Of a DNA stretch of 53,202 bases, positions 36,580 through 49,320 are shown piece by piece (within the stretch, counting starts at the first letter, position 1; every line of letters starts with the position of its first letter). Both the position numbers and the translations under genes were made by a program. The notes beneath the pieces were generated by a model that saw nothing but the letters and a program-made list of their open reading frames with translations, had not been told where the DNA came from and searched no databases. Source of the stretch: a virus; IMG/VR virus record IMGVR_UViG_3300045988_160612, positions 1 through 53,202 of that record; one strand, 5' to 3'.

Positions 36580-36666
36580 TGGTGCTGGCAACGGGATTTG
36601 AACCCGTATGATATTTCTACCGAGGGATTTTAAGTCCCTTGTGTCTGCCGATTCCACCATGCCAGC
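36580..36666 (-). tRNA. tRNA-Leu (anticodon UAA), type II, CCA encoded.
   Basis: GCUGGCA acceptor pairs with UGCCAGC. The D region is GGAAUCGGCAGAC. The anticodon loop CUUAAAA sits on a 5-bp stem. It has a long variable arm and the T arm ACGGG-UUCAAAU-CCCGU. Confidence 0.9.
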
Positions 36667-36672
36667 AATTTC

Positions 36673-36759
36673 AGAACACAGCTAAAGTGCAGAAGCAAAA
36701 CCCTTTCATAAATTTTAGCTAAACTCATAAAACAAGATTTGCCATAATAGCTGTGTTCT
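36673..36759 (-). other. Unassigned structured spacer: 12-bp perfect stem (agaacacagcta / tagctgtgttct) closing a 63-nt loop between the two tRNA-Leu genes.
   Basis: Read directly. It has no tRNA T-loop or anticodon architecture. Confidence 0.6.
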
Positions 36760-36761
36760 TT

Positions 36762-36846
36762 TGGTACTCCAAGTGGGATTTGAACCCACACGCCTTTCAG
36801 CAGCAGTTTTTGAGACTACCTTGTCTGCCCATTCCAACATTGGAGT
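36762..36846 (-). tRNA. tRNA-Leu (anticodon CAA), type II, CCA encoded.
   Basis: ACUCCAA pairs with UUGGAGU. The D region is GGAAUGGGCAGAC. The anticodon stem GUAGU/ACUGC carries the loop CUCAAAA. It has a long variable arm and the T arm GUGGG-UUCAAAU-CCCAC. Confidence 0.85.
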
Positions 36847-36848
36847 AT

Positions 36849-36870
36849 ATTCCGCGGGGTACCGCGGAAT
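36849..36870 (-). other. GC-rich 9-bp hairpin (attccgcgg-ggta-ccgcggaat) abutting the 5' end of tRNA-Leu(CAA).
   Basis: Read directly. It is strikingly GC-rich for this genome. A U-run follows it only on the plus strand. Confidence 0.7.
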
Positions 36871-36925
36871 TTCGTTTTTCATTTTTAACCAGGTTGAAAT
36901 GCTTATTAAAAACTTTCCTGGTTTT

Positions 36926-37001
36926 TGGTGTGCCTGGAGAGACTTGAACTCTCGACCCATAGATTAAAAGTCTATTGCTCTACCGACTGAGCTACAAACA
37001 C
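36926..37001 (-). tRNA. tRNA-Lys (anticodon UUU), CCA encoded.
   Basis: The acceptor GUGUUUG/CAGGCAC has two G.U pairs. The D arm is GCUC-AGUCGGUA-GAGC. The anticodon arm is AUAGA-CUUUUAA-UCUAU. The T arm is GAGAG-UUCAAGU-CUCUC. Confidence 0.9.
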
Positions 37002-37014
37002 ACAAATGGATTTT

Positions 37015-37090
37015 TGGTTAGGATAGCCGGATTTGAACCGGCGAAATGACGGGGTCAAAGTCCGTTGCCTTACCTCTTGGCCATATCCTA
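37015..37090 (-). tRNA. tRNA-Gln (anticodon UUG), CCA encoded.
   Basis: The acceptor UAGGAUA/UAUCCUA has U1-A72, as in bacterial tRNA-Gln. The D region is GCCAAGAGGUAAGGC. The anticodon loop is CUUUGAC. The T arm is GCCGG-UUCAAAU-CCGGC. Confidence 0.9.
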
Positions 37091-38763: not shown

Positions 38764-41100
38764 TTAATACTTTTGACCTGATACAGCACATTCCAGGTAT
38801 ATCTGTCCGTATTCTGAACGAATCTTAGTAATTACAAAACTTGTACCTCTTTGGATAATAGTTTCATCTTCGGAGCCAAAGTGGTTTTGCTTTTTCTTAC
38901 CGTCCCAGAAGTTTTCATATACATTAGAATTATATTGATTATAATTACTTTTATTTCCACCATAATGGCTCCATGGCTCGGCATATATCATATGAGTTCC
39001 AGCAGGACAGAATATATTCATTTTGTGACCACCAAAACCTGTACCTTTTGTAGTACCACATGACATAAAGCCCTCATCTGTAACAACTTTACCGACTAAA
39101 GACTGCAAATCTTCATTACTTGCATTTATTAACCAGTCTGCTTTTACTCCAAGGAATGAAGCCATACCCTCGTCAGTTCCAACACCACGGTTAAGCCAAT
39201 AGTCTTTGTTATAAAATGATTTAGATATTGCTTCCGTCATTTTGTTAATGTAATACTCACCCTTATCGTTTTCATTATCCAAACTTACCTTTCCAATGCC
39301 TAAGAAATTTGACCAAGAATAATCATATCCCCTAAGTGGACGATTCATAAAGCCCGACCCATATGTATATAAATACAAAGCTTCTTTCTGTGGCTCTGTG
39401 TAGGTATTTTTCCATAACTGAGCTATCTTGCTTCTCAAAGCTGCATCTGCATCTTTAGCATCATAAAACCAAATTCCAGCATCTAATCTTTCTTGACTAT
39501 AAGCATTGCTCAGAATCGCTTTAGATTCTTTGGTTAATAAGCTTTTTACTCCTAAATTATTTACTGTGTCTTTTACCTCTGGAAATTTTAAGTTGTTATT
39601 ATAATATTTTTTTAATTTATATAATACGTCTGTTGTATCATTTGACCAAATTACCTGATTTATTCCTGCATTAGTTTCAAGCATTTTCCAATAATCATAA
39701 TTATTTAAATACTCTGTGGAAGTAAGATTCTGGTATTTATCATATACAAATTCTGCAAATTGCTTTCCACTCTTTGGCATATTCTCAGGACTAAATCCTA
39801 ATGGGGATAACATTTCCTTTTGTATCTCATTAAATACTTTTTCCACTGTTGATTTTTCTTTTGCAGCTAATTCCTTTTCTGCTGCTAACTCAAAGGAATA
39901 TTTAGACACTGATAAATTTTCATTATACCACAATTCCATTTTCTGAAATGGGTGAGCTTCGGAATGCAAATTTAATACATCAAACAACTCTGTTTTTTCT
40001 TCACTAGTAAGTTTATGTGACCACTCAGAAAATTCTGGAGTTGTATATGGATTGTACCCCTTAGTAGCAAGCCACATTTCTTGCAACTCATTATATTGCT
40101 TGTGGAAGTCCTCACCTGTAAGATATGTCATATAGTCATCTAACTGCTCATTATCTTCTCCGTTTACCCAATTAGCTAAGTCATCTGATATAGCATCTAA
40201 ATTCTTAGTTAATACTGCTTCAAATGTACACATTCCATTAGGGTGGTCCATTGGTACACTATTTAAATCATACATCTTGCCATTACGTGATTCACACAGT
40301 TCACAAGTTCTTTCTACCATAGCAGCTCTCCACATGATTTTTTCAACATATGGATTCTGTTTGCAAGTTTCTATGATACTTTGCTGGTAAGCATGAGCCA
40401 CCATTGTACGTGCTAGCCTCTGAGCATTATAATCTACATTTCCAAAATAAAACTTTCCATATTTCCCAGGAATAGGAATCCTTTTACCATTAGCATCTTT
40501 TTTAAACGTACCGTCTGGATTTTTTTCATACTTAGGATATTTTATTACTCTACTTGGTTTGCTCTGTGCTGGAGTAACATATTTTTCTAAGTCTTTTGCT
40601 ATTTCTAATGATGATTTATTTTCTGCTATACCCTTTGACACAATATCAGATAAAACACCTTTAGATTTATTATTGATACCCCAAATAGCACTACTGAAAT
40701 TCCAATCATTTCCATATAACTTACCCGACATAATATTAGCTATTACATCTTGTGGAACATGAGCAACTTTTCCCTCAAATGTCAAACCTAAACCAGATAA
40801 CCAACTTAGATTATTCTGTACTACTGCATTAGATACCTTGTAAACACTTCCTTTTATTAGTTGTGACTGCTGCTCTTCTAATTCTTTTAAATTATGATTT
40901 ATTGATTCTAACAGATGATTTAACTGTGTTTTCCTTAACGATTCAGAGACAGCAAGGGAAGATTTTAGATTCAATTTTGATATTTCATGTAACGTTTCTG
41001 ATTTAGCTTTCTTGTACATCTCTATAATAGCCTTAGAATCATCTGTGGTCAAGTCTGATAAACTTTTATAAGCTTTCCCGAATGTTATCATATTAGCCAT
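38764..41100 (-). CDS. Minor head protein (SPP1 gp7 / Mu F-like) fused to a C-terminal R-S-E ADP-ribosyltransferase domain.
   Basis: The gp7-like block is CELCESRNGKMYDLNSVPMDHPNGMCTF. The ART motifs are FMNRPLRG (Arg), GFMSCGT (STS-like) and SEDETIIQRGTSFVITKI (ExE). Confidence 0.8.
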   Translation of the reverse strand: MANMITFGKAYKSLSDLTTDDSKAIIEMYKKAKSETLHEISKLNLKSSLAVSESLRKTQLNHLLESINHNLKELEEQQSQLIKGSVYKVSNAVVQNNLSWLSGLGLTFEGKVAHVPQDVIANIMSGKLYGNDWNFSSAIWGINNKSKGVLSDIVSKGIAENKSSLEIAKDLEKYVTPAQSKPSRVIKYPKYEKNPDGTFKKDANGKRIPIPGKYGKFYFGNVDYNAQRLARTMVAHAYQQSIIETCKQNPYVEKIMWRAAMVERTCELCESRNGKMYDLNSVPMDHPNGMCTFEAVLTKNLDAISDDLANWVNGEDNEQLDDYMTYLTGEDFHKQYNELQEMWLATKGYNPYTTPEFSEWSHKLTSEEKTELFDVLNLHSEAHPFQKMELWYNENLSVSKYSFELAAEKELAAKEKSTVEKVFNEIQKEMLSPLGFSPENMPKSGKQFAEFVYDKYQNLTSTEYLNNYDYWKMLETNAGINQVIWSNDTTDVLYKLKKYYNNNLKFPEVKDTVNNLGVKSLLTKESKAILSNAYSQERLDAGIWFYDAKDADAALRSKIAQLWKNTYTEPQKEALYLYTYGSGFMNRPLRGYDYSWSNFLGIGKVSLDNENDKGEYYINKMTEAISKSFYNKDYWLNRGVGTDEGMASFLGVKADWLINASNEDLQSLVGKVVTDEGFMSCGTTKGTGFGGHKMNIFCPAGTHMIYAEPWSHYGGNKSNYNQYNSNVYENFWDGKKKQNHFGSEDETIIQRGTSFVITKIRSEYGQIYLECAVSGQKY

Positions 41101-41143: not shown

Positions 41144-42625
41144 TTAATTATTGTTGTTAAATGTGTTAGGAGTGGGGAAAAATGAATCATCTAACATCTG
41201 TCTTTCAAGAGCTATTTGCTTGATTTCATCATCTGCTTCCTGGTCGGTCAAATTTCTCCATTTCTTCATATATGCTTTCTTTGACATTGTTTGGTTGGAA
41301 ACTTCCTCAAGGTCTAAGGTCTTTTCCTCGTTCTCATCTTCTGGAAGTGGATATTGATTTACTATATCTATAGTATAATCCACTTGCTGCAATGGAGTAT
41401 CAATATAAATTTTAGCAATATCAGGGTACAATAAAGCGCCATCAATAAGGCATTTGATAATCAGTTCAAGTTCATATTTCCAAGACATCATTTTTTCATC
41501 ACATCTAACAATTAAGCCCCAATAAATAGCTTTTAATGTTTTACCAGATGTAACAATTCCTTTCAAGTCATCTGCACTAATTTGTGGCATATCTATAGTT
41601 TCATACATTGTGTCATTTATACGACTGAGTGTTGTATCTAATGACTGACTATATGACATCTGAGATTCTAAGATACCTAAATCACCTGTTGTGGAATCGT
41701 CAGTGCTTTTGTCAGATGATAAATCCCAGAACGAACCAGGAGCTATAGGCAAGTCCTTAGTCGATTCGGGAGACATATCCCTAACCCATCTAATAGGGCT
41801 CATAGACTGTCTTTCTGCATCAATATCCTTGTTTGATAATTTACTGTAGTATTGCTCATAATCAAACAAATTAGCTACCTCTGATTCTCCACTATTATCA
41901 TTTAATAATCCATCGTTAAGAATTACAACAGCAGGAATATATTCAAACTTTGTTGCTGCATCTTCTATGATAACTTCCACAAGACTTCCTGCACCATCAT
42001 ATATAGCTTCCGTTACATGACATAAATTATCTTCTGCCATATAATATTTCTTTTTATATATTCTTTGGTCTGCTGCATTATTAGCATCGTTCATAGAATA
42101 AAATGTAATTATCTTTGCCAGCCTATTGTACTTATCTACTTCATAGACAAATTCTAAGGACGGGATAAAGCTAACAACTATTCCAGCATCATTAAAATTA
42201 CACACAATAGCTATACGTTTTCCTATTAAACAATCTCTTGCGGATTTAACTAATGTAGCATTAAAATGGTTTTCTTTTAACACCTCACTAATATACTTCC
42301 TATAAGTATCAATCTTAGTATCATTAGCTTCATTTGGCGTTACTGCTTTTAAATTGATATCAGGAGATTTAGCAAACATAAACCTTGATTCCTTGTCAAT
42401 CAATCCTCTTATCTTTTTATAGTGCATATCTGAGGGAACAAAATCCTCTGTGCTTGTAACAGGAAAATCAGCACCCCATTGATATATATTATAATACTTT
42501 ATAATCTCCCCAAATTCAGCTAATAAAGCATTACCATATACACCAGATATTTCCTCAGTTATCAAATTCCTTGGAACCCAAGGTCTTAAAATCCTTTTAA
42601 ATATATCAGTTGCAAAATTATCCAT
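41144..42625 (-). CDS. Portal protein (SPP1 gp6-like).
   Basis: 493 aa, between TerL and the gp7-like gene, with an acidic C-terminal region. Confidence 0.8.
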   Translation of the reverse strand: MDNFATDIFKRILRPWVPRNLITEEISGVYGNALLAEFGEIIKYYNIYQWGADFPVTSTEDFVPSDMHYKKIRGLIDKESRFMFAKSPDINLKAVTPNEANDTKIDTYRKYISEVLKENHFNATLVKSARDCLIGKRIAIVCNFNDAGIVVSFIPSLEFVYEVDKYNRLAKIITFYSMNDANNAADQRIYKKKYYMAEDNLCHVTEAIYDGAGSLVEVIIEDAATKFEYIPAVVILNDGLLNDNSGESEVANLFDYEQYYSKLSNKDIDAERQSMSPIRWVRDMSPESTKDLPIAPGSFWDLSSDKSTDDSTTGDLGILESQMSYSQSLDTTLSRINDTMYETIDMPQISADDLKGIVTSGKTLKAIYWGLIVRCDEKMMSWKYELELIIKCLIDGALLYPDIAKIYIDTPLQQVDYTIDIVNQYPLPEDENEEKTLDLEEVSNQTMSKKAYMKKWRNLTDQEADDEIKQIALERQMLDDSFFPTPNTFNNNN

Positions 42626-42628
42626 ATA

Positions 42629-43996
42629 TCAATACCTGCTTCCTTTTCTCGTATTTGTTGTTATTTCCTTAGGGTCAGCTATATCAACTCTATCTAACGC
42701 ATACCAAATAGCTGATAATGTATGTGGGTCAATATTAAAATCATCATATACTAAATTACCTTGCTTATCCTTTTTATACGTTAGATTTTTTAATTCCCTT
42801 ATTACGTTAATACAACATGGGGCACAAATGATTCTTTTAAATCTTTTAACTTTTTTAGTATAACTTAATCTACTTCCTGCAAACTTCTTAGCTCCACGCA
42901 TTCTATATCCCATATCGTTATAAAACTTTATTGCCTTAGGGTCCTCACTATCTGCTATTATATTATATTTCTTAAATTTCTTAAATTGTTCATCATTAGC
43001 CGTTTCCATATCTGTCATGTGGTTTTTATAATATTCCCTATAAATATATAATATCTTATTTTCCTTATCCACTGCTACATTAACTAAAGCATTATAAGAT
43101 TCCTCAAATCCAAAGTCCATTCCTGTAAATATATTTCTTGCTCCTAAATCTCTTACTTTTTCATATACTTCCTTGTTAGTTTCTGCTACTTCAAACTGAG
43201 GCAATACCCGCATTCCATTGGCGCCAAATTTGCCTAATTTAGCTACTCTGTATAAATCAATATCATATGACTTCATATCCTCTAATCTGTCCAAATATGC
43301 TTGCGGTAAATAGGGATTATCTTCTGGGATAGAATGATGATAATATGTTTTTCCTAACCTTATAACTTTCTTTTCGTATAACTCTTCATCATCTAAAATA
43401 ACTTGCTCTTTTCCTAAATTATCAACTCGCTTGAAAAACATACGATATACCCAGTTATTTTTATCCACTGGATTAAATGTTAAAATAAAGTGCATTGATA
43501 AATCTGGGCATCTTACACGACCTAAAAGCTCATTATAACCTGCTGCTTTTACCTCACTTGCTTCCTCTATCCATACAATAGAGACATTATTTATAGACTT
43601 TACCTTTTCTGGATTATCCATTCCTTTAAATATGATTCTGGAACCATTAGGGAATTTAAACTGCAAAGGGGATTTGTGAGCAACCACCTTTGTCTTTGCT
43701 ATTTGCCTATTTCCACGCCCTATTTCTAACATATCCATATCATCTAATATTTCATATAATAAACTATAACAACTTTCAAATATAGTATCAAAAACTTCTC
43801 TAACAACTAAAACTGTACGTTTTTCCTGAAAACATTTTAAAACAATTTTTAATGCTGTATTATAACTTTTACTGCTTCCATAGCCTCCACAAACTACATA
43901 TATTTCAGAATCCCAATCAAAAATATAATCATAAAATCTAGGGGCTACTTCCTTATTTACCTGTTTAGGCTCGCTTTTTCTTTGCTGTCTTACCAC
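42629..43996 (-). CDS. terL: Terminase large subunit.
   Basis: VVCGGYGSSKSYNTA is Walker A-like and VSIVWIEEASE is Walker B. The C-terminal nuclease half and the synteny also agree. Confidence 0.9.
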   Translation of the reverse strand: MVRQQRKSEPKQVNKEVAPRFYDYIFDWDSEIYVVCGGYGSSKSYNTALKIVLKCFQEKRTVLVVREVFDTIFESCYSLLYEILDDMDMLEIGRGNRQIAKTKVVAHKSPLQFKFPNGSRIIFKGMDNPEKVKSINNVSIVWIEEASEVKAAGYNELLGRVRCPDLSMHFILTFNPVDKNNWVYRMFFKRVDNLGKEQVILDDEELYEKKVIRLGKTYYHHSIPEDNPYLPQAYLDRLEDMKSYDIDLYRVAKLGKFGANGMRVLPQFEVAETNKEVYEKVRDLGARNIFTGMDFGFEESYNALVNVAVDKENKILYIYREYYKNHMTDMETANDEQFKKFKKYNIIADSEDPKAIKFYNDMGYRMRGAKKFAGSRLSYTKKVKRFKRIICAPCCINVIRELKNLTYKKDKQGNLVYDDFNIDPHTLSAIWYALDRVDIADPKEITTNTRKGSRY

Positions 43997-44866: not shown

Positions 44867-45235
44867 TCAAGTTTCCTTGTCATTGAGTTTATCTTGTTGC
44901 ATTTTAGCTAAACTTTTTACCCTTAAAGCTAATTCCTTCCTATAAGCTTTCATTCTGCATACTTCACAATTATTTTCCTCATTGATAAAAAATGCATGAT
45001 GAAATTCTTTGCATATCATGCACCTATGAGAAGCAAGCTGTTTTTCATCAAATGTAAAAAATATGATTAAATTTATGGACCTGCCATCTTGTTGTTTTTC
45101 AAACTTAAAAGTGAAGTTGTCGTTCTTAATAAATTTTCCAAGGTATTTTATAGCTTGCATATATGAATCCTTATAATTATAAGAACTAAACAATTTCTCA
45201 CTTATTTTTTGGGAGACTAACATTATAAGTGGCAC
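44867..45235 (-). CDS. Hypothetical Cys/His-containing protein. The start is uncertain.
   Basis: HRCMICKEFHH...CEVCRMKAY. The track start overlaps the RNase H gene by 38 nt, and an alternative ATG lies at 45160. Confidence 0.45.
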   Translation of the reverse strand: MPLIMLVSQKISEKLFSSYNYKDSYMQAIKYLGKFIKNDNFTFKFEKQQDGRSINLIIFFTFDEKQLASHRCMICKEFHHAFFINEENNCEVCRMKAYRKELALRVKSLAKMQQDKLNDKET

Positions 45236-45719
45236 CTCCAGTTAAGTTTTCCATTTCTATATCTTGGCAAGCTTTTACAGCCAGGGAATCAACTAACTCA
45301 TTAAACTTTTCTCCTGAATGCCCCTTTACTTTCTGCATTATTATCTCAACATCGTTAGAACAATCAAGAAATTTTTTCCAAAGGTCTTTGTTCTTAACCG
45401 GTTGCTTGCTGGAAGTTACCCACCCTTTGTTAATCCAATTTCTTATCCAGTTTTTATTATATGCCTCTACAACATAGGCTGAATCTGAGAAAATATTGAT
45501 TTTATTTATTCCATGAGATTTAGCAAGATTTACTGCTTCTATCACTGCCGTTAATTCCATCCTGTTATTAGTTGTATAGGCTTCTCCTCCATAATAGGCA
45601 GATAAAATCTTTTGCTTAGAATCAAGAAACACTATTCCATATCCACCAACCCCGGGATTATAACTACAAGCTCCATCAGTATAGCAATATATTTCCTTTT
45701 TTACTTTTTCCTCACTCAT
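45198..45719 (-). CDS. rnhA: Ribonuclease HI.
   Basis: YTDGACSYNPGVGGYG, TNNRMELTAV, FSDSAYV and KVKGHSGEKFNELVDSLA supply the DEDD catalytic pattern. Confidence 0.9.
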   Translation of the reverse strand: MSEEKVKKEIYCYTDGACSYNPGVGGYGIVFLDSKQKILSAYYGGEAYTTNNRMELTAVIEAVNLAKSHGINKINIFSDSAYVVEAYNKNWIRNWINKGWVTSSKQPVKNKDLWKKFLDCSNDVEIIMQKVKGHSGEKFNELVDSLAVKACQDIEMENLTGGATYNVSLPKNK

Positions 45720-46287
45720 TTTCTATTTCCTCTGCTGATTCAAAAAGCTTATCAACTTCTTCCTGAGAATGTAAGATTATCCTCTCAACTTCTGGCACAT
45801 TATAAGGAAATGTTACGGGAACTTTACTTGCACTACAAGAAAACCAAGATTCTCCATTATCATCTGAGAACACCTTGCCGTTAATATTGTAAGCTGTTGC
45901 ATTATCATTACAAACTCTAAAAATGCTTGGACATCTCTTATTCTGCTGTACACTTGCTTTATCCCCATAGAAATCACTAACATCTTTCCACTCTTCCTCA
46001 GAGCCAGTAAGAGCTGTCAGTGGCTTGTATTCCACAAGTGTTTTAAACAAACTCATAACAAAACCGATAGACAAGCCCGAGTGGCCTTGCTCATCGATAA
46101 CCTTGATAAGCTCCATAACATTTTCTTTTGCAAATTTAGCAGCTTTACATTCAAATGTTCTTGTTTTTGCTGCATCTTCTACAGTCTCAATATAAGAATC
46201 TTCCTTGATATAATCCTCAAGTGGCTTATCCTCTATATTTTTGATAAAAATATCAAGCTCATTTTCTGCAAACTGTACAATACTCAT
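45712..46287 (-). CDS. Hypothetical protein.
   Basis: 191-aa ORF. Confidence 0.5.
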   Translation of the reverse strand: MSIVQFAENELDIFIKNIEDKPLEDYIKEDSYIETVEDAAKTRTFECKAAKFAKENVMELIKVIDEQGHSGLSIGFVMSLFKTLVEYKPLTALTGSEEEWKDVSDFYGDKASVQQNKRCPSIFRVCNDNATAYNINGKVFSDDNGESWFSCSASKVPVTFPYNVPEVERIILHSQEEVDKLFESAEEIENE

Positions 46288-46289
46288 TT

Positions 46290-46649
46290 TTACTCATTTC
46301 CTTTCTTAGCATATAAATAAATACAAACTATGGCCTTTTTAAATAACTCATCAAAAGTGCTTGCGTAAATAGTAAAACATAAATTTCTTTTTTCATCTCT
46401 TTTCAGAACCGAGGAAGTAAAGAATATTTCACCATTTGAATTTTTAGAATTAAAAATATAACTGATTCCCAATCCAGTCTTTCTGCTTAACTTCTCGTAA
46501 AGCTTAAAAAGCTGGTCAACTGTTAAATCCTTGTCACTAAATTTCTCCATAAAGGGAATTTTGTTGTACAAAAATTTATCTAAGTTTTCTTTGTTTTTTG
46601 GAATTTTACAATCCAAAATATTTATCTTATCATATGTAATTTTGGCCAT
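46290..46649 (-). CDS. Hypothetical protein.
   Basis: 119-aa ORF. Confidence 0.5.
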   Translation of the reverse strand: MAKITYDKINILDCKIPKNKENLDKFLYNKIPFMEKFSDKDLTVDQLFKLYEKLSRKTGLGISYIFNSKNSNGEIFFTSSVLKRDEKRNLCFTIYASTFDELFKKAIVCIYLYAKKGNE

Positions 46650-46674
46650 TTTATCACCTAAACTTGTTAAAATA

Positions 46675-46721
46675 AAAGTCGCCCTTAGCCCAGAATAAAC
46701 ACTGAACTATTGGGCGACTTT
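46675..46721 (-). terminator. Hairpin (10-bp stem, 27-nt loop) followed by U-rich sequence.
   Basis: aaagtcgccc / gggcgacttt. The minus strand continues TATTTTAAC. Confidence 0.4.
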
Positions 46722-46757
46722 GTTTTCATTTAAGAATATTACTTTTTATTTACTTAC

Positions 46758-47216
46758 TTAGATATCCCAATCATCATCGTCATCTTCGTCCTTTGCCTTC
46801 TTCTTAGACTTAGGGGCTTCCTTAGCAGCAGGAGCCTTCTTCTTGGACTTAGGCTTTACCTCTTCTTCCTCTTCCTCCTCATCGTCACCCTCGTCTTCAT
46901 CTTCTTCCTCGGGTTCAACCTTCTTCTTAGACTTCTTTGCGGGCTTTTCCTCAGCCTTCTTCTTGGGCTTTGCTTCTTCCTCCTCATCGTCAGAATCTTC
47001 TTCTGACTCAGCAGATGTATCAACGTCACCCTTAAGAATTGCCTCAATCTTTCTTGCTGAAATGTACTCGGGAATTGCCTCGATAATTCCTACAGGATTA
47101 GAGGCTGCCATGAATACAAAGAGGGGGAATCTTCTACCGATATCCTGAATAGCTGCCTTATCCTTACCCTCACGAATTACCTTTACAGCCTCAGCTGTAG
47201 ACCAGTTCTTTGCCAT
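46758..47216 (-). CDS. Hypothetical protein with a structured N-terminal ~65 aa and an extreme alternating acidic and basic tail.
   Basis: The tail runs SEEDSDDEEEEAKPKKKAEEKPAKKSKKK...DEDDDDDWDI. The RBS is AGGAGGAATTTAATT. Confidence 0.55.
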   Translation of the reverse strand: MAKNWSTAEAVKVIREGKDKAAIQDIGRRFPLFVFMAASNPVGIIEAIPEYISARKIEAILKGDVDTSAESEEDSDDEEEEAKPKKKAEEKPAKKSKKKVEPEEEDEDEGDDEEEEEEEVKPKSKKKAPAAKEAPKSKKKAKDEDDDDDWDI

Positions 47217-47265
47217 AATTAAATTCCTCCTAAAAAATATTTTTGTTTAATTTATTAGTGGTTAT

Positions 47266-47324
47266 CCACCGACCGAGGTTTCCCTCGGTTTCGTCTTAAT
47301 TTTCAAAGAACTCATCAGGGTGGC
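47266..47324 (-). ncRNA. Hammerhead self-cleaving ribozyme, type I topology. Predicted cleavage between 47271 and 47270.
   Basis: The minus strand reads GCCACC-CUGAUGA-G[U]UCUU-UGAAAAUU-AAGAC-GAAA-CCGAGG-GAAA-CCUCGG-U-C/GGUGG. All invariant core positions, G10.1-C11.1, A15.1-U16.1 and the GUC cleavage triplet are present. Confidence 0.85.
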
Positions 47325-47329
47325 TTTTA

Positions 47330-47518
47330 TTACTTTACATAATAAGAAATAAAACGATAATTTGTACTCTTAGGATTATGAGAATAAACTACATATCCAG
47401 TTCCGAATCTTCCAGAATACTCTGTGATTGTCTCACCTTTAACTGACTGATAACCTCTGCAAAGAGAAGTGTGGTGAAGAGTGTAGCCTGCATTTTTGAT
47501 TTCATTAACTGTTTTCAT
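47330..47518 (-). CDS. Hypothetical small protein.
   Basis: 62 aa. The RBS is ACGGAGGTAATTAAAA. Confidence 0.5.
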   Translation of the reverse strand: MKTVNEIKNAGYTLHHTSLCRGYQSVKGETITEYSGRFGTGYVVYSHNPKSTNYRFISYYVK

Positions 47519-47663
47519 TTTTAATTACCTCCGTAAACTTGAAACTTATTTTTGATTTAAGTTTTGTTTTTGTTTTGTTATTTTAATTATACACTTTAAT
47601 TGTTAATAAATTTATATGAATTATATTAACATACTGTAAATTTAACAAGAATTTAGATTATTT

Positions 47664-48143
47664 TTAATTTTCAAAGTCCCACACAAATTTTCTAAGTTGT
47701 ATACCTGCCTCATTCAACAAATTATCTGCCAACTGAGATGGGTAAAAATCATCATATATAACTACAGATATTCCAGCATTAATAATCAGCTTTGCGCATT
47801 CTGCACATGGTTTATGTGTACAGTACATAATTGTATCTTTGCAGCTGATTCCCAACGCTGCTGCCTGTAAAATAGCATTTGCTTCGGCGTGTACAGCTAA
47901 ACACTCATCATGCCCTTGACCATGACCAAAGCCCAGCTGTCTTTTCCGACAAAAACCATAATCATATGCGCAATTTTTAATGCCCTTAGGAGCACCAGAA
48001 TACCCTGTAGCAATTATTCTTTTATCTTTTATGATAACAGCACCTTTATGTGCAGATAAGCAGGTACTTCTTTCGGAAGCTGCGTATGCTATTTTCATAA
48101 AATATTCGTCCCATGAAATTCTACTCTTCTTCTTTGATTCCAT
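47664..48143 (-). CDS. dCMP deaminase (ComEB / T4 Cd-like).
   Basis: The zinc motifs HAEANAI and PCAECAKLI are present, and the N-terminus is WDEYFM. Confidence 0.9.
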   Translation of the reverse strand: MESKKKSRISWDEYFMKIAYAASERSTCLSAHKGAVIIKDKRIIATGYSGAPKGIKNCAYDYGFCRKRQLGFGHGQGHDECLAVHAEANAILQAAALGISCKDTIMYCTHKPCAECAKLIINAGISVVIYDDFYPSQLADNLLNEAGIQLRKFVWDFEN

Positions 48144-48447
48144 TTACCGATTCCTCTTTTTCTTTTATCTCATCTAATTGGTCACCAATATTGGCCAAAA
48201 TATGATAATACTGAATATTATACTGCTGCAAAAATGGCTTTAATTTAAATATTAGCTGCTGTTGTTCCAGCAAAACTTCCTTTTTATTTTTAAATTTTTC
48301 GAACATTCCATATGTGTAAATAGTAGTCAGATATTTTTTACCACATTTAGGACACTGAATATACCTTACAACGACATTAGACCGAAGCGGTAACGTTTTT
48401 TTGACTTCTAACATTAAATAAGCTTCCACAACCGTCTTCTGCATCAC
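48121..48447 (-). CDS. Hypothetical protein.
   Basis: 108 aa containing CPKCGKK. Confidence 0.5.
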   Translation of the reverse strand: MMQKTVVEAYLMLEVKKTLPLRSNVVVRYIQCPKCGKKYLTTIYTYGMFEKFKNKKEVLLEQQQLIFKLKPFLQQYNIQYYHILANIGDQLDEIKEKEESVNGIKEEE

Positions 48448-48479
48448 ATTTAACTCTTACTATCTTTGCCCGCCTTGCT

Positions 48480-48842
48480 TTACTCTTCATTTTCTTCTTC
48501 TCCCTCTATATCAATTTCTGCTATCAAAGCAACCTTAAACACATCTGTAGAAATTATCTTTGAGATGTTTTCAAGCTCAACATAATCTATCTGGGAGTTA
48601 AATTTTATCTTACCTGCTCCATCATGGTCTACATTGATACTATTAACCATGAATGACCCTAACTTAATTTTTTCATTATCAATTATGGCAATAATTGTAA
48701 CATCTTCATTCAACATCTGAATAGCCTGAATATATTTAGTTATTGTATCATATGTAAACTTCAAAGTTAGGGAGATATTCTTTGCCTGATTTACATTATG
48801 ACCGCCATAAGAAGCTACTGTTTTAATGCTTATTTTTTTCAT
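48480..48842 (-). CDS. Hypothetical protein with an acidic C-terminus.
   Basis: The start was set to the internal ATG at 48842 (MKKISIKT...), because the upstream part of the track ORF overlaps the preceding gene. Confidence 0.45.
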   Translation of the reverse strand: MKKISIKTVASYGGHNVNQAKNISLTLKFTYDTITKYIQAIQMLNEDVTIIAIIDNEKIKLGSFMVNSINVDHDGAGKIKFNSQIDYVELENISKIISTDVFKVALIAEIDIEGEEENEE

Positions 48843-49320
48843 TGTACATTTTCTCTCTTTCTTTATAAAATTTATTTCTAGCAGATTTGCTGCCAGTTTT
48901 GACTTTTGGAGTATTTTGCTTGGTCGTTCCAGGAGCCACCAGAAGCCCCTCAGATTCAACTTTGCTTTTAGACAATAATTTATATTTATGATTATGCTTG
49001 ATTCCCCTGGCAATGTCCTGGACATCCTCTGGTCGAATCAATATGTATTCTTCATTAATGCTAAGGAACTGTATCATAAACACGCCAGATTTGTGTGATG
49101 TATCGCAATGATAAAACAGTTTGTGTAAATCCAGCAGATTTATTTTGATACTCTCAGCATCTGTACTTTTTAACTGGCACAATAAAATATCATTCTCGCC
49201 ATCTTCTTTTTCTATCCAACCAGAACCAGAATTTTTAGTAGGATTCAATCCATATTTTTTCATTGTCTCTGATTCATTATTTCTATAAAATTTTCCTGTT
49301 CTTTTCATTTTCAATTTCAA
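48823..49320 (-). CDS. Possible PD-(D/E)XK-type endonuclease (Hjc/RecU-like pattern).
   Basis: GSGWIEKEDGENDILLCQLKST gives a D...Q-x-K pattern. Weak. Confidence 0.35.
   Translation of the reverse strand: MKLKMKRTGKFYRNNESETMKKYGLNPTKNSGSGWIEKEDGENDILLCQLKSTDAESIKINLLDLHKLFYHCDTSHKSGVFMIQFLSINEEYILIRPEDVQDIARGIKHNHKYKLLSKSKVESEGLLVAPGTTKQNTPKVKTGSKSARNKFYKEREKMYNEKNKH

Follow-up and report, generated by a model that had tools for sequence, protein, structure and literature searches.

A complete type I hammerhead ribozyme element between two cistrons of a tailed gut phage, and the phage subfamily to which it appears to belong

Results

The element and its flanking cistrons

The stretch of DNA analysed here, referred to as the window, comprises 53,202 nucleotides (nt) of the IMG/VR virus record IMGVR_UViG_3300045988_160612 (positions 1 to 53,202), and our subject is a hammerhead ribozyme element on its minus strand at 47266..47324. 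The element lies in the 113-nt spacer (47329-47217) that separates two cistrons of the same strand. The upstream cistron is an open reading frame (ORF) of 62 amino acids (aa) at 47330..47518 with its own GGAGG ribosome-binding site, and the ribozyme begins 5 nt past its TAA stop codon (47332-47330). The downstream cistron at 46758..47216 encodes a 152-aa protein whose N-terminal domain is conserved and whose tail, rich in K, E and D, is highly charged; its A/U-rich leader (47217..47256, minus strand) carries an AGGAGG ribosome-binding site at 47231-47226. The predicted cleavage site is 39 nt from this AGGAGG and 54 nt from the ATG start codon at 47216. The first-pass annotation of the window, made by a model from the sequence alone, had described the same layout, including the start of the element 5 nt after the stop and the consensus cut between 47271 and 47270, and had placed it on the transcribed strand between two cistrons. 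This description is borne out by our data, the neighbouring genes also being on the minus strand, and the identification of the element as a complete hammerhead of type I, intercistronic and on the transcribed strand, is supported.

Read on the minus strand from 47324 to 47266, the RNA is G-CCACC-CUGAUGA-G-U-U-CUU-UGAAAAUU-AAGA-C-GAA-A-CCGAGG-GAAA-CCUCGG-U-C / GGUGG, the slash marking the predicted scissile bond. The invariant hammerhead core is complete (C3 U4 G5 A6 N7 G8 A9, G12 A13 A14, A15.1-U16.1 and H17), with CUGAUGA (C3 to A9) at 47318-47312, GAA (G12-A13-A14) at 47292-47290 and C17 at 47271, and the cleavage triplet is GUC. All the pairs adjoining the core are standard: G47311-C47293 (10.1-11.1), C47319-G47270 (1.1-2.1) and A47289-U47272 (15.1-16.1). 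Stem I consists of 5 base pairs (bp) between CCACC at 47323-47319 and GGUGG at 47270-47266; stem II of 5 bp and one bulged U (47311-47306 with 47297-47293), closed by the 8-nt loop II UGAAAAUU at 47305-47298; and stem III of 7 bp (47289-47283 with 47278-47272), closed by the GAAA loop III at 47282-47279. Stem I is open, both ends of the RNA leaving through it, and loops close stems II and III, which is the type I topology. The sequence reading, the invariant positions and the three helices thus agree in every detail with those of the first-pass annotation. From the hammerhead consensus the scissile bond is predicted at 47270..47271, 3' of C17 (47271) and 5' of G1.1 (47270). The A-rich flank UAAAA (47325..47329, minus strand) lies between the stop codon and stem I, with G47324, opposite A47265, intervening, and may be the tertiary-contact partner of loop II.

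Locally, the 76-nt segment 47330-47255 adopts the three-way junction as its minimum-free-energy fold (-20.5 kcal/mol, z -2.67). The core pattern CTGATGAG..CGAAA..TC had no match in 100 dinucleotide shuffles of the window, and a descriptor scan of both strands of the window returned the 47266-47324 element as the single site.

A gut-phage subfamily of hammerheads

A scan of viral contigs keyed on the core and loop II only (CTGATGAG-N4-5-TGAAAATT-N4-5-CGAAAC) found the pattern in at least 119 viral stretches. Among the matches listed, 125 of 141 are complete type I hammerheads, which reduce to 83 unique elements, and several others are type III permutations with the same stem II. Within these 83 unique elements stem I is 5-6 bp long in 79, AA occupies positions -2/-1 in 79-80, and position 17 is C in 70. 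The type III circular permutations with identical stem II and loop II UGAAAAUU (L120, L128, L146, L158, L168 and L197) have stem I loops that end in A, which suggests the same tertiary partner of loop II in both topologies.

Stem II covaries within the subfamily (GUCUU/AAGAC, GUCGC/GCGAC, GUCGU/ACGAC, GUAUC/GAUAC and others). For a quantitative view, 59 lineages were aligned with the lineage of the window excluded; the aligned members had been pre-selected for at least three contiguous pairs in stems I and III, and only the three outer pairs of stem III are in register. In this alignment 96.4% of the pair cells hold standard pairs, compared with 27-43% when the partners are slid, both sides have changed in 10 of the 14 pairs, and the covariation score is 0.635 vs 0.129. 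A covariance model built from the alignment (R1), which had therefore been trained without the window's lineage, gave the window element 60.6 bits over the full model length, with an expectation value (E) of 2.6e-16, and this was the sole significant R1 match within the window. The earlier claim that the window holds no other full match is thus upheld by both the two-strand descriptor scan and the covariance model.

Members of the subfamily are also present in at least 70 species-representative bacterial genomes, mostly metagenome-assembled genomes of gut Clostridia, and the complete members in this independent set score 55-79 bits under R1, a range into which the 60.6 bits of the window element fall. 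The same 30-mer occurs in the crAss-like phages cr53_1, cr131_1, cr272_1 and cr273_1, where it is unannotated. In GenBank phage records, crAss-like phages included, the subfamily goes unannotated (NC_055889.1, NC_055902.1, NC_055903.1 and NC_055904.1).

The placement of these elements relative to genes is stereotyped. The median distance from the preceding stop codon on the same strand to the start of the element is 4 nt (5 nt in the window), and that from the cleavage site to the next start codon on this strand is 40 nt (54 nt in the window), with 53 of 78 cases lying within 60 nt. The flanking proteins are diverse, with 51 clusters among 65 proteins upstream and 36 clusters among 54 downstream, so that a constant partner gene for the subfamily can be dismissed; a small Rho-N/SAP-like protein with no relation to the 152-aa gene makes up the largest of the downstream clusters, with 8 loci. 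Some loci hold 2-5 hammerhead copies. On the unrelated viral contig L048, a subfamily hammerhead at 3260-3338 lies between two Pistol ribozymes (2806-2875 and 3609-3678, minus strand), which score 69.2 and 60.2 bits against a gathering score of 34.5; together they form a mixed-class cluster around short genes. By its sequence, the window element is a member of this gut-phage type I subfamily with loop II UGAAAAUU, which is defined here.

Rfam models and the subfamily

No hammerhead family was reached when the window was scanned with Rfam at the gathering thresholds, and only four tRNAs were returned. A permissive scan covering 47200-47400 gave RF03152 (RAGATH-1 hammerhead) as the best Rfam match, at 27.6 bits against a gathering score of 56.3 (E 0.0064 locally), and RF00163 (Hammerhead_1, type I) at 13.3 bits against 34; none of the gathering scores of RF00163, RF00008 and RF02275-7 was attained by the element. 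As a control, 15 loci with consensus members of the subfamily were examined in the same way and gave no hammerhead match at gathering either, their best scores being 25.9-43.8 bits, and the diverged syntenic copy in L210 (see below) had no Rfam hammerhead match at E up to 0.5. The members L015-L283 are also below every Rfam hammerhead gathering score. Since consensus members and the L210 copy fail alike, a score below gathering does not discriminate between real and spurious elements here, and the covariance check proposed in the first-pass annotation, in which the window element did fall short of every threshold, turned out to be uninformative. The sub-threshold score reflects the coverage of the Rfam seed alignments, not a defect of the window element.

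The window element has in common with RF00163 the open stem I and the core, and its alignment spans the full model (positions 1-45). Unlike the element, however, this model expects very short stem II and stem III hairpins and treats the 7-bp stem III and the 8-nt loop II as insertions; with 25.9 bits, a consensus member of the subfamily falls short of it as well. Features common to the element and RAGATH-1 are the core, a stem I of 5 bp preceded on its 5' side by the A-rich AUAAAA, and a stem III that is long; stem II of the RF03152 model, by contrast, is 1 bp, and a 5' hairpin is conserved in it, where the window has a 5-bp stem II with a conserved 8-nt loop. The AU hairpin upstream of the ribozyme (47345-47327), which emerged from the alignment to RAGATH-1, was considered as a conserved part of the element and rejected, because a T-to-C change breaks its pairing in L002, L006 and L212 and it is absent in L210.

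The same slot in related phages

Fifteen homologues share the N-terminal domain of the 152-aa protein, with 50-100% identity. In these relatives (P0001-P0015) the total length is 87-155 aa, the N-terminal domain of ~70 aa being conserved, and the K/E/D-rich tail (46758-46997, minus strand, in the window) varies widely in length even among close relatives. The slot upstream of the gene is found in three states. A hammerhead precedes the gene in the window, L001-3, L006, L009, L010, L212 and L210; in L004, L005, L211 and L213 there is a spacer of ~150 nt with an 8-bp GC hairpin and a ~25-bp imperfect hairpin (L004:2846-3000, L211:1039-1182, L213:1-150); and in L007, L008, L011 and L012 the spacer is only 22 nt long. 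The hairpin spacer of the L004 type was also considered as another known ribozyme, a possibility rejected because it had no Rfam ribozyme match at E below 10; it may be a nuclease processing site with the same role as the hammerhead.

Comparison with L006 provides an estimate of constraint. The ribozymes are identical at 58 of 59 positions, the single change, GAAA to GGAA, lying in loop III, while the genes flanking them are 80-94% identical overall and 62-86% identical at third codon positions, and the spacer between the deaminase gene and the 62-aa ORF is 77.5% identical. This disparity argues for purifying selection on the ribozyme at the window locus.

The diverged copy in L210 occupies the same position ahead of an 87%-identical homologue and lies behind a different upstream gene, which indicates that the ribozyme travels with the downstream gene; for the same reason the idea that it travels with the 62-aa ORF was rejected. 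Stem I of the L210 hammerhead is identical to that of the window, with the consensus AA flank and A at N7. Its stem II is GUAUU/AAUAC, with no bulge and with a compensatory C-G to A-U change relative to the window, and its stem III of 10 bp is wholly different from the window's. This element scores 59.9 bits with R1 and has a fold z of -5.5. The first-pass annotation had suggested looking for a syntenic element and for covariation of the helices, and both are found: in L210 a compensated stem II and a new stem III, and in the family compensatory changes in 10 of the 14 pairs.

The hairpin at the 5' end of the predicted downstream product

In the predicted 3' product of cleavage, the 3' strand of stem I is re-used in a 5'-terminal hairpin, GGUGG-AUAA-CCAC(U), at 47257..47270 (minus strand), and L210 keeps this hairpin as GGUGG-AAAAA-CCAC. 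Over 85 lineages the best hairpin formed by the stem I 3' strand with the next 20 nt has a mean of 3.19 bp, compared with 2.83 bp for shuffled and 2.78 bp for swapped controls, a value reached in 0 of 2000 control sets of either kind. Hairpins of at least 5 bp occur in 10 of the 85 lineages, where the controls lead one to expect 5.6 and 4.8 (P 0.038 and 0.012). On the 5' side of the family elements, a mirror test revealed no hairpin tendency. The tendency is strongest in the group that has the window's stem I and an AUAA loop (L114, L141, L153 and L174). The hairpin proposed in the first-pass annotation, about 40 nt ahead of the ribosome-binding site, therefore does fold and is retained in the diverged L210 copy; as a family trait it is a real but modest tendency.

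Genomic context

All ORFs of at least 150 aa in the window are on the minus strand except two, and both plus-strand ORFs overlap minus-strand ones. On the minus strand between the 62-aa and 152-aa ORFs no promoter-like or terminator-like site was found; a promoter-like site is present at 47648-47620, ahead of the 62-aa ORF. The neighbouring genes encode a dCMP deaminase (47664-48143), RNase H (45198-45719), the large terminase (42629-43996) and the portal protein (41144-42625). Terminases of Clostridium, Bacillus and Anoxybacillus phages and of animal-gut viromes share ~55% identity with that of the window, and the GC content is 32-38%; the window derives from a tailed phage whose host is a Gram-positive gut bacterium of low GC. 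A cluster of four tRNAs, Leu(UAA), Leu(CAA), Lys(UUU) and Gln(UUG), is located at 36580-37090 on the minus strand.

Two further minus-strand genes are of note in their own right. Downstream of the ribozyme, at a distance of two genes, lies a candidate anti-defence gene (45712-46287), whose 191-aa Tad3-like product matches Pfam PF25185 (Tad3, type I Thoeris inhibitor) with 100.5 bits. In a 778-aa head protein (38764-41100), which may be an injected effector, a Mu-F-like N-terminal part of the head-morphogenesis kind is joined to an ADP-ribosyltransferase domain (PF03496) at the C-terminus.

Searches of Pfam and PHROG with the 152-aa protein gave no match, nor did a tblastn search with this protein or a megablast search with 46000-49000 against GenBank phages. 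Scans of viral contigs seeded with the 152-aa N-terminal domain and the 62-aa ORF returned one near-identical contig only, and the same single contig was returned by DNA patterns in which stem III or stem II was fixed. An exact 13-mer, CTTTGAAAATTAA, occurs twice on the minus strand (47664-47676 and 47296-47308), ~370 nt apart on either side of the 62-aa ORF; one copy forms the last codons and stop of the dCMP deaminase gene (DFEN and the stop) and the other part of stem II and loop II of the hammerhead. The repeat is found in L006 and L009 too. It is probably a coincidence rather than a recombination joint, because one copy encodes the conserved C-terminus of the deaminase.

Discussion

The element at 47266..47324 is very probably a functional type I hammerhead that acts within a polycistronic phage mRNA and cuts itself co-transcriptionally after C17. 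In the mechanism that we propose, minus-strand transcription through the 62-aa ORF would be followed by co-transcriptional folding of the RNA into the three-helix junction and by self-cleavage between 47271 and 47270. The upstream mRNA would then end in a 2',3'-cyclic phosphate and be capped by the compact ribozyme body formed by stems II and III, and the downstream mRNA would start with a 5'-OH G, its first 13-14 nt folding into GGUGG-AUAA-CCAC, followed by the unstructured A/U-rich leader, the AGGAGG and the ATG of the 152-aa gene. The two cistrons would likely become separate mRNAs with independent stability and translation, and the downstream gene would gain a defined leader independent of the upstream context, with a protected 5' end, the natural equivalent of a ribozyme insulator. 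In Bacillota, the 5'-end-dependent decay carried out by RNase J requires an accessible 5' end, so the hairpin could protect the new message. Our data show the fit to the hammerhead in sequence and structure, the subfamily membership, the covariation, the purifying selection and a stereotyped placement between cistrons; that the RNA cleaves, how fast it does so in the cell and how expression responds are what we infer.

Several observations weigh against this interpretation. Self-cleavage is predicted from sequence, and the benefit of cleavage in terms of stability or insulation is a conjecture. Homologous loci without the hammerhead exist, namely those with the hairpin spacer and those with the 22-nt spacer, which means that the ribozyme is dispensable for the downstream gene. 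The score is below gathering under every Rfam hammerhead model, though our controls show this to be a gap in the models, and the tendency to form the 3' hairpin is modest family-wide. In the 231-nt context, moreover, the fold in which the ribozyme is enforced is 9.3 kcal/mol worse than the optimum. The window copy also departs from the subfamily consensus in two respects. The extra bulged U in the 5' strand of stem II is found in 2 of the 83 unique elements listed, both of the window's lineage, and directly 5' of stem I there is G47324, preceded by AAAA, where the subfamily has A or a sixth stem I pair; the 6-bp register of stem I fits the window copy only if G47324/A47265 is counted as a mismatch. 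Either deviation could weaken the tertiary contact presumed to join loop II to stem I and slow cleavage at physiological Mg2+. The same position of stem II, however, has acquired bulges of a single nucleotide independently, as A in L248 (minus strand, near 82-112; 59.8 bits) and as G in L280 (minus strand, near 803-833; 55.5 bits), and the bulge variant is evidently tolerated.

These observations could also be accommodated by other explanations. The failure to reach gathering in any Rfam hammerhead family would be expected if the resemblance were due to chance, or if the spacer had a generic structure, for example that of a terminator or nuclease site, with no ribozyme activity in either case, but the bona fide consensus members of the subfamily reproduce this failure, stem III is not followed by a U-tract, and no terminator-like site of the minus strand is present there. 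The absence of matches in the shuffles, an E of ~3e-16 with an independently trained model, the strong covariation of the family and the L210 copy effectively refute this explanation, which we regard as hardly conceivable. It is highly improbable, too, that the element is a decaying or very slow relic, its tertiary contact crippled by the bulge of stem II and the G at -1 and its persistence due to recent common ancestry. Its two deviations from the subfamily consensus and its dispensability in homologous loci would fit such a state, and activity is reported to fall by orders of magnitude when stem lengths near the tertiary contact are changed (Perreault et al., PMC3088659). A relic would hardly be 58/59 identical to the L006 copy, with the sole change in loop III, when sites that are neutral-like are 62-86% identical; all its core positions are intact, its model score is within the range of the other members, and the bulge recurs in independent lineages.

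A more elaborate alternative is a conditional hammerhead. The segment CAAAGAACU in codons 2-4 of the 152-aa gene (47204..47212, minus strand) is a perfect complement of AGUUCUUUG (47312-47304), which comprises core and stem II 5' strand residues, including the lineage-specific extra U. In the optimum fold of the 231-nt RNA, GAUGAGUUCUUUG is paired with CAAAGAACUGGUC in codons 2-6 through this 9-nt perfect complement (12 bp with one mismatch), with a pairing probability of 0.99, GGUGG flips into the AUAA hairpin and the ribozyme is dismantled. Cleavage would then be limited to a short co-transcriptional window or be restored by initiating ribosomes that melt the helix, which would couple it to translation. 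A complement of this length was reached in only 13 of 1000 shuffles, and the lineage of the window is at the top of the family distribution; the extra U of stem II sits inside the complement; and CAAAGAAC is kept in all hammerhead-bearing relatives, whereas those without the hammerhead have AAT or AAA AAT at these codons. The helix was found post hoc, however, and it is not conserved in the diverged syntenic hammerhead of L210, where the strand is AGUAUUUG, and the relatives that do keep the complement are too close to be informative. The bulge itself needs no special explanation, as it recurs independently in L248 and L280, and the view of the extra U as an adaptation for the competing helix is weakened by these A and G bulges at the same position. 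In long-context folds the hammerhead is out-competed in most family members (median pairing probability of stem I 0.08 across the family), so its absence from the long-context minimum-free-energy fold is non-specific and was rejected as evidence against function; the energy model, moreover, ignores both tertiary stabilisation and the order of co-transcriptional folding. We consider such a conditional ribozyme very unlikely, and a hammerhead cutting in the course of transcription remains the interpretation that we prefer.

Reports of hammerheads in intergenic regions of phages and prophages, where they often flank single genes, date back to 2011 (PMC3088659); these ribozymes cleave in vitro and in vivo and have been proposed to process polycistronic RNA (PMC3088659, PMC6765202), which is the standard hypothesis for phage hammerheads, plausible and unproven (PMC6765202). 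The window element resembles those of types I, II and III described by Perreault et al. 2011 (PMC3088659) in its catalytic core and three-helix junction, in lying between phage genes on their coding strand without any constant partner gene, and in its proposed role of cutting long phage transcripts into gene-length mRNAs. Some of its subfamily relatives, like those elements, are present in several copies per locus or are mixed with Pistol ribozymes; the window, in contrast, has a single copy and not a flanking pair. A separate description in that work of the subfamily with loop UGAAAAUU and the AA flank could not be confirmed, and the spacing of stop, ~4 nt, ribozyme, ~40 nt and start is quantified here. 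The window element is thus a genuine, selected and evolutionarily conserved hammerhead of a large and already known kind of phage ribozyme, and it involves no new principle.

The arrangement also invites comparison with engineered and enzymatic devices. In synthetic insulators of the RiboJ type a hammerhead, derived from sTRSV and of type III, is followed by a hairpin ahead of the ribosome-binding site. In the window, too, the hammerhead is followed by a hairpin at the newly formed 5' end and then by the leader, the ribosome-binding site and the gene, and by analogy the ribozyme would remove the upstream RNA context and give a defined, protected 5' end, an equivalence of function that we infer. 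Unlike these insulators, the window element is natural, belongs to another ribozyme lineage and to type I, and its hairpin re-uses the 3' strand of stem I. Among the intercistronic processing sites of phage mRNAs, on the other hand, are long hairpins cut by a double-strand-specific RNase, and the hammerhead occupies the very slot that in L004, L005, L211 and L213 holds the ~25-bp imperfect hairpin. This suggests by analogy that the slot may be an mRNA-processing point filled by different devices, of which the hammerhead, unlike a nuclease site, needs no host enzyme. A bolder proposal would combine these features, making the ribozyme of this lineage conditional through CAAAGAACU (47212-47204) and the AUAA hairpin, in a manner dependent on timing or on ribosomes, and, more broadly, making the subfamily a natural insulator cassette of ribozyme, 5' hairpin and ~40-nt leader; we think it unlikely.

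Phage hammerheads have been known for ~15 years, and their function there is still unproven (PMC6765202). The subfamily described here, which occurs in crAss-like phages and in phages and prophages associated with Clostridia, escapes all Rfam gathering thresholds and is consequently missed by routine annotation. A function in fixing where the downstream mRNA begins would fit its stereotyped intercistronic layout. The homologous loci, in which the same gene is preceded by a hammerhead, by a long hairpin or by no spacer, provide a natural allelic series for the mRNA-processing hypothesis, that is, for the question of what phage hammerheads are for.

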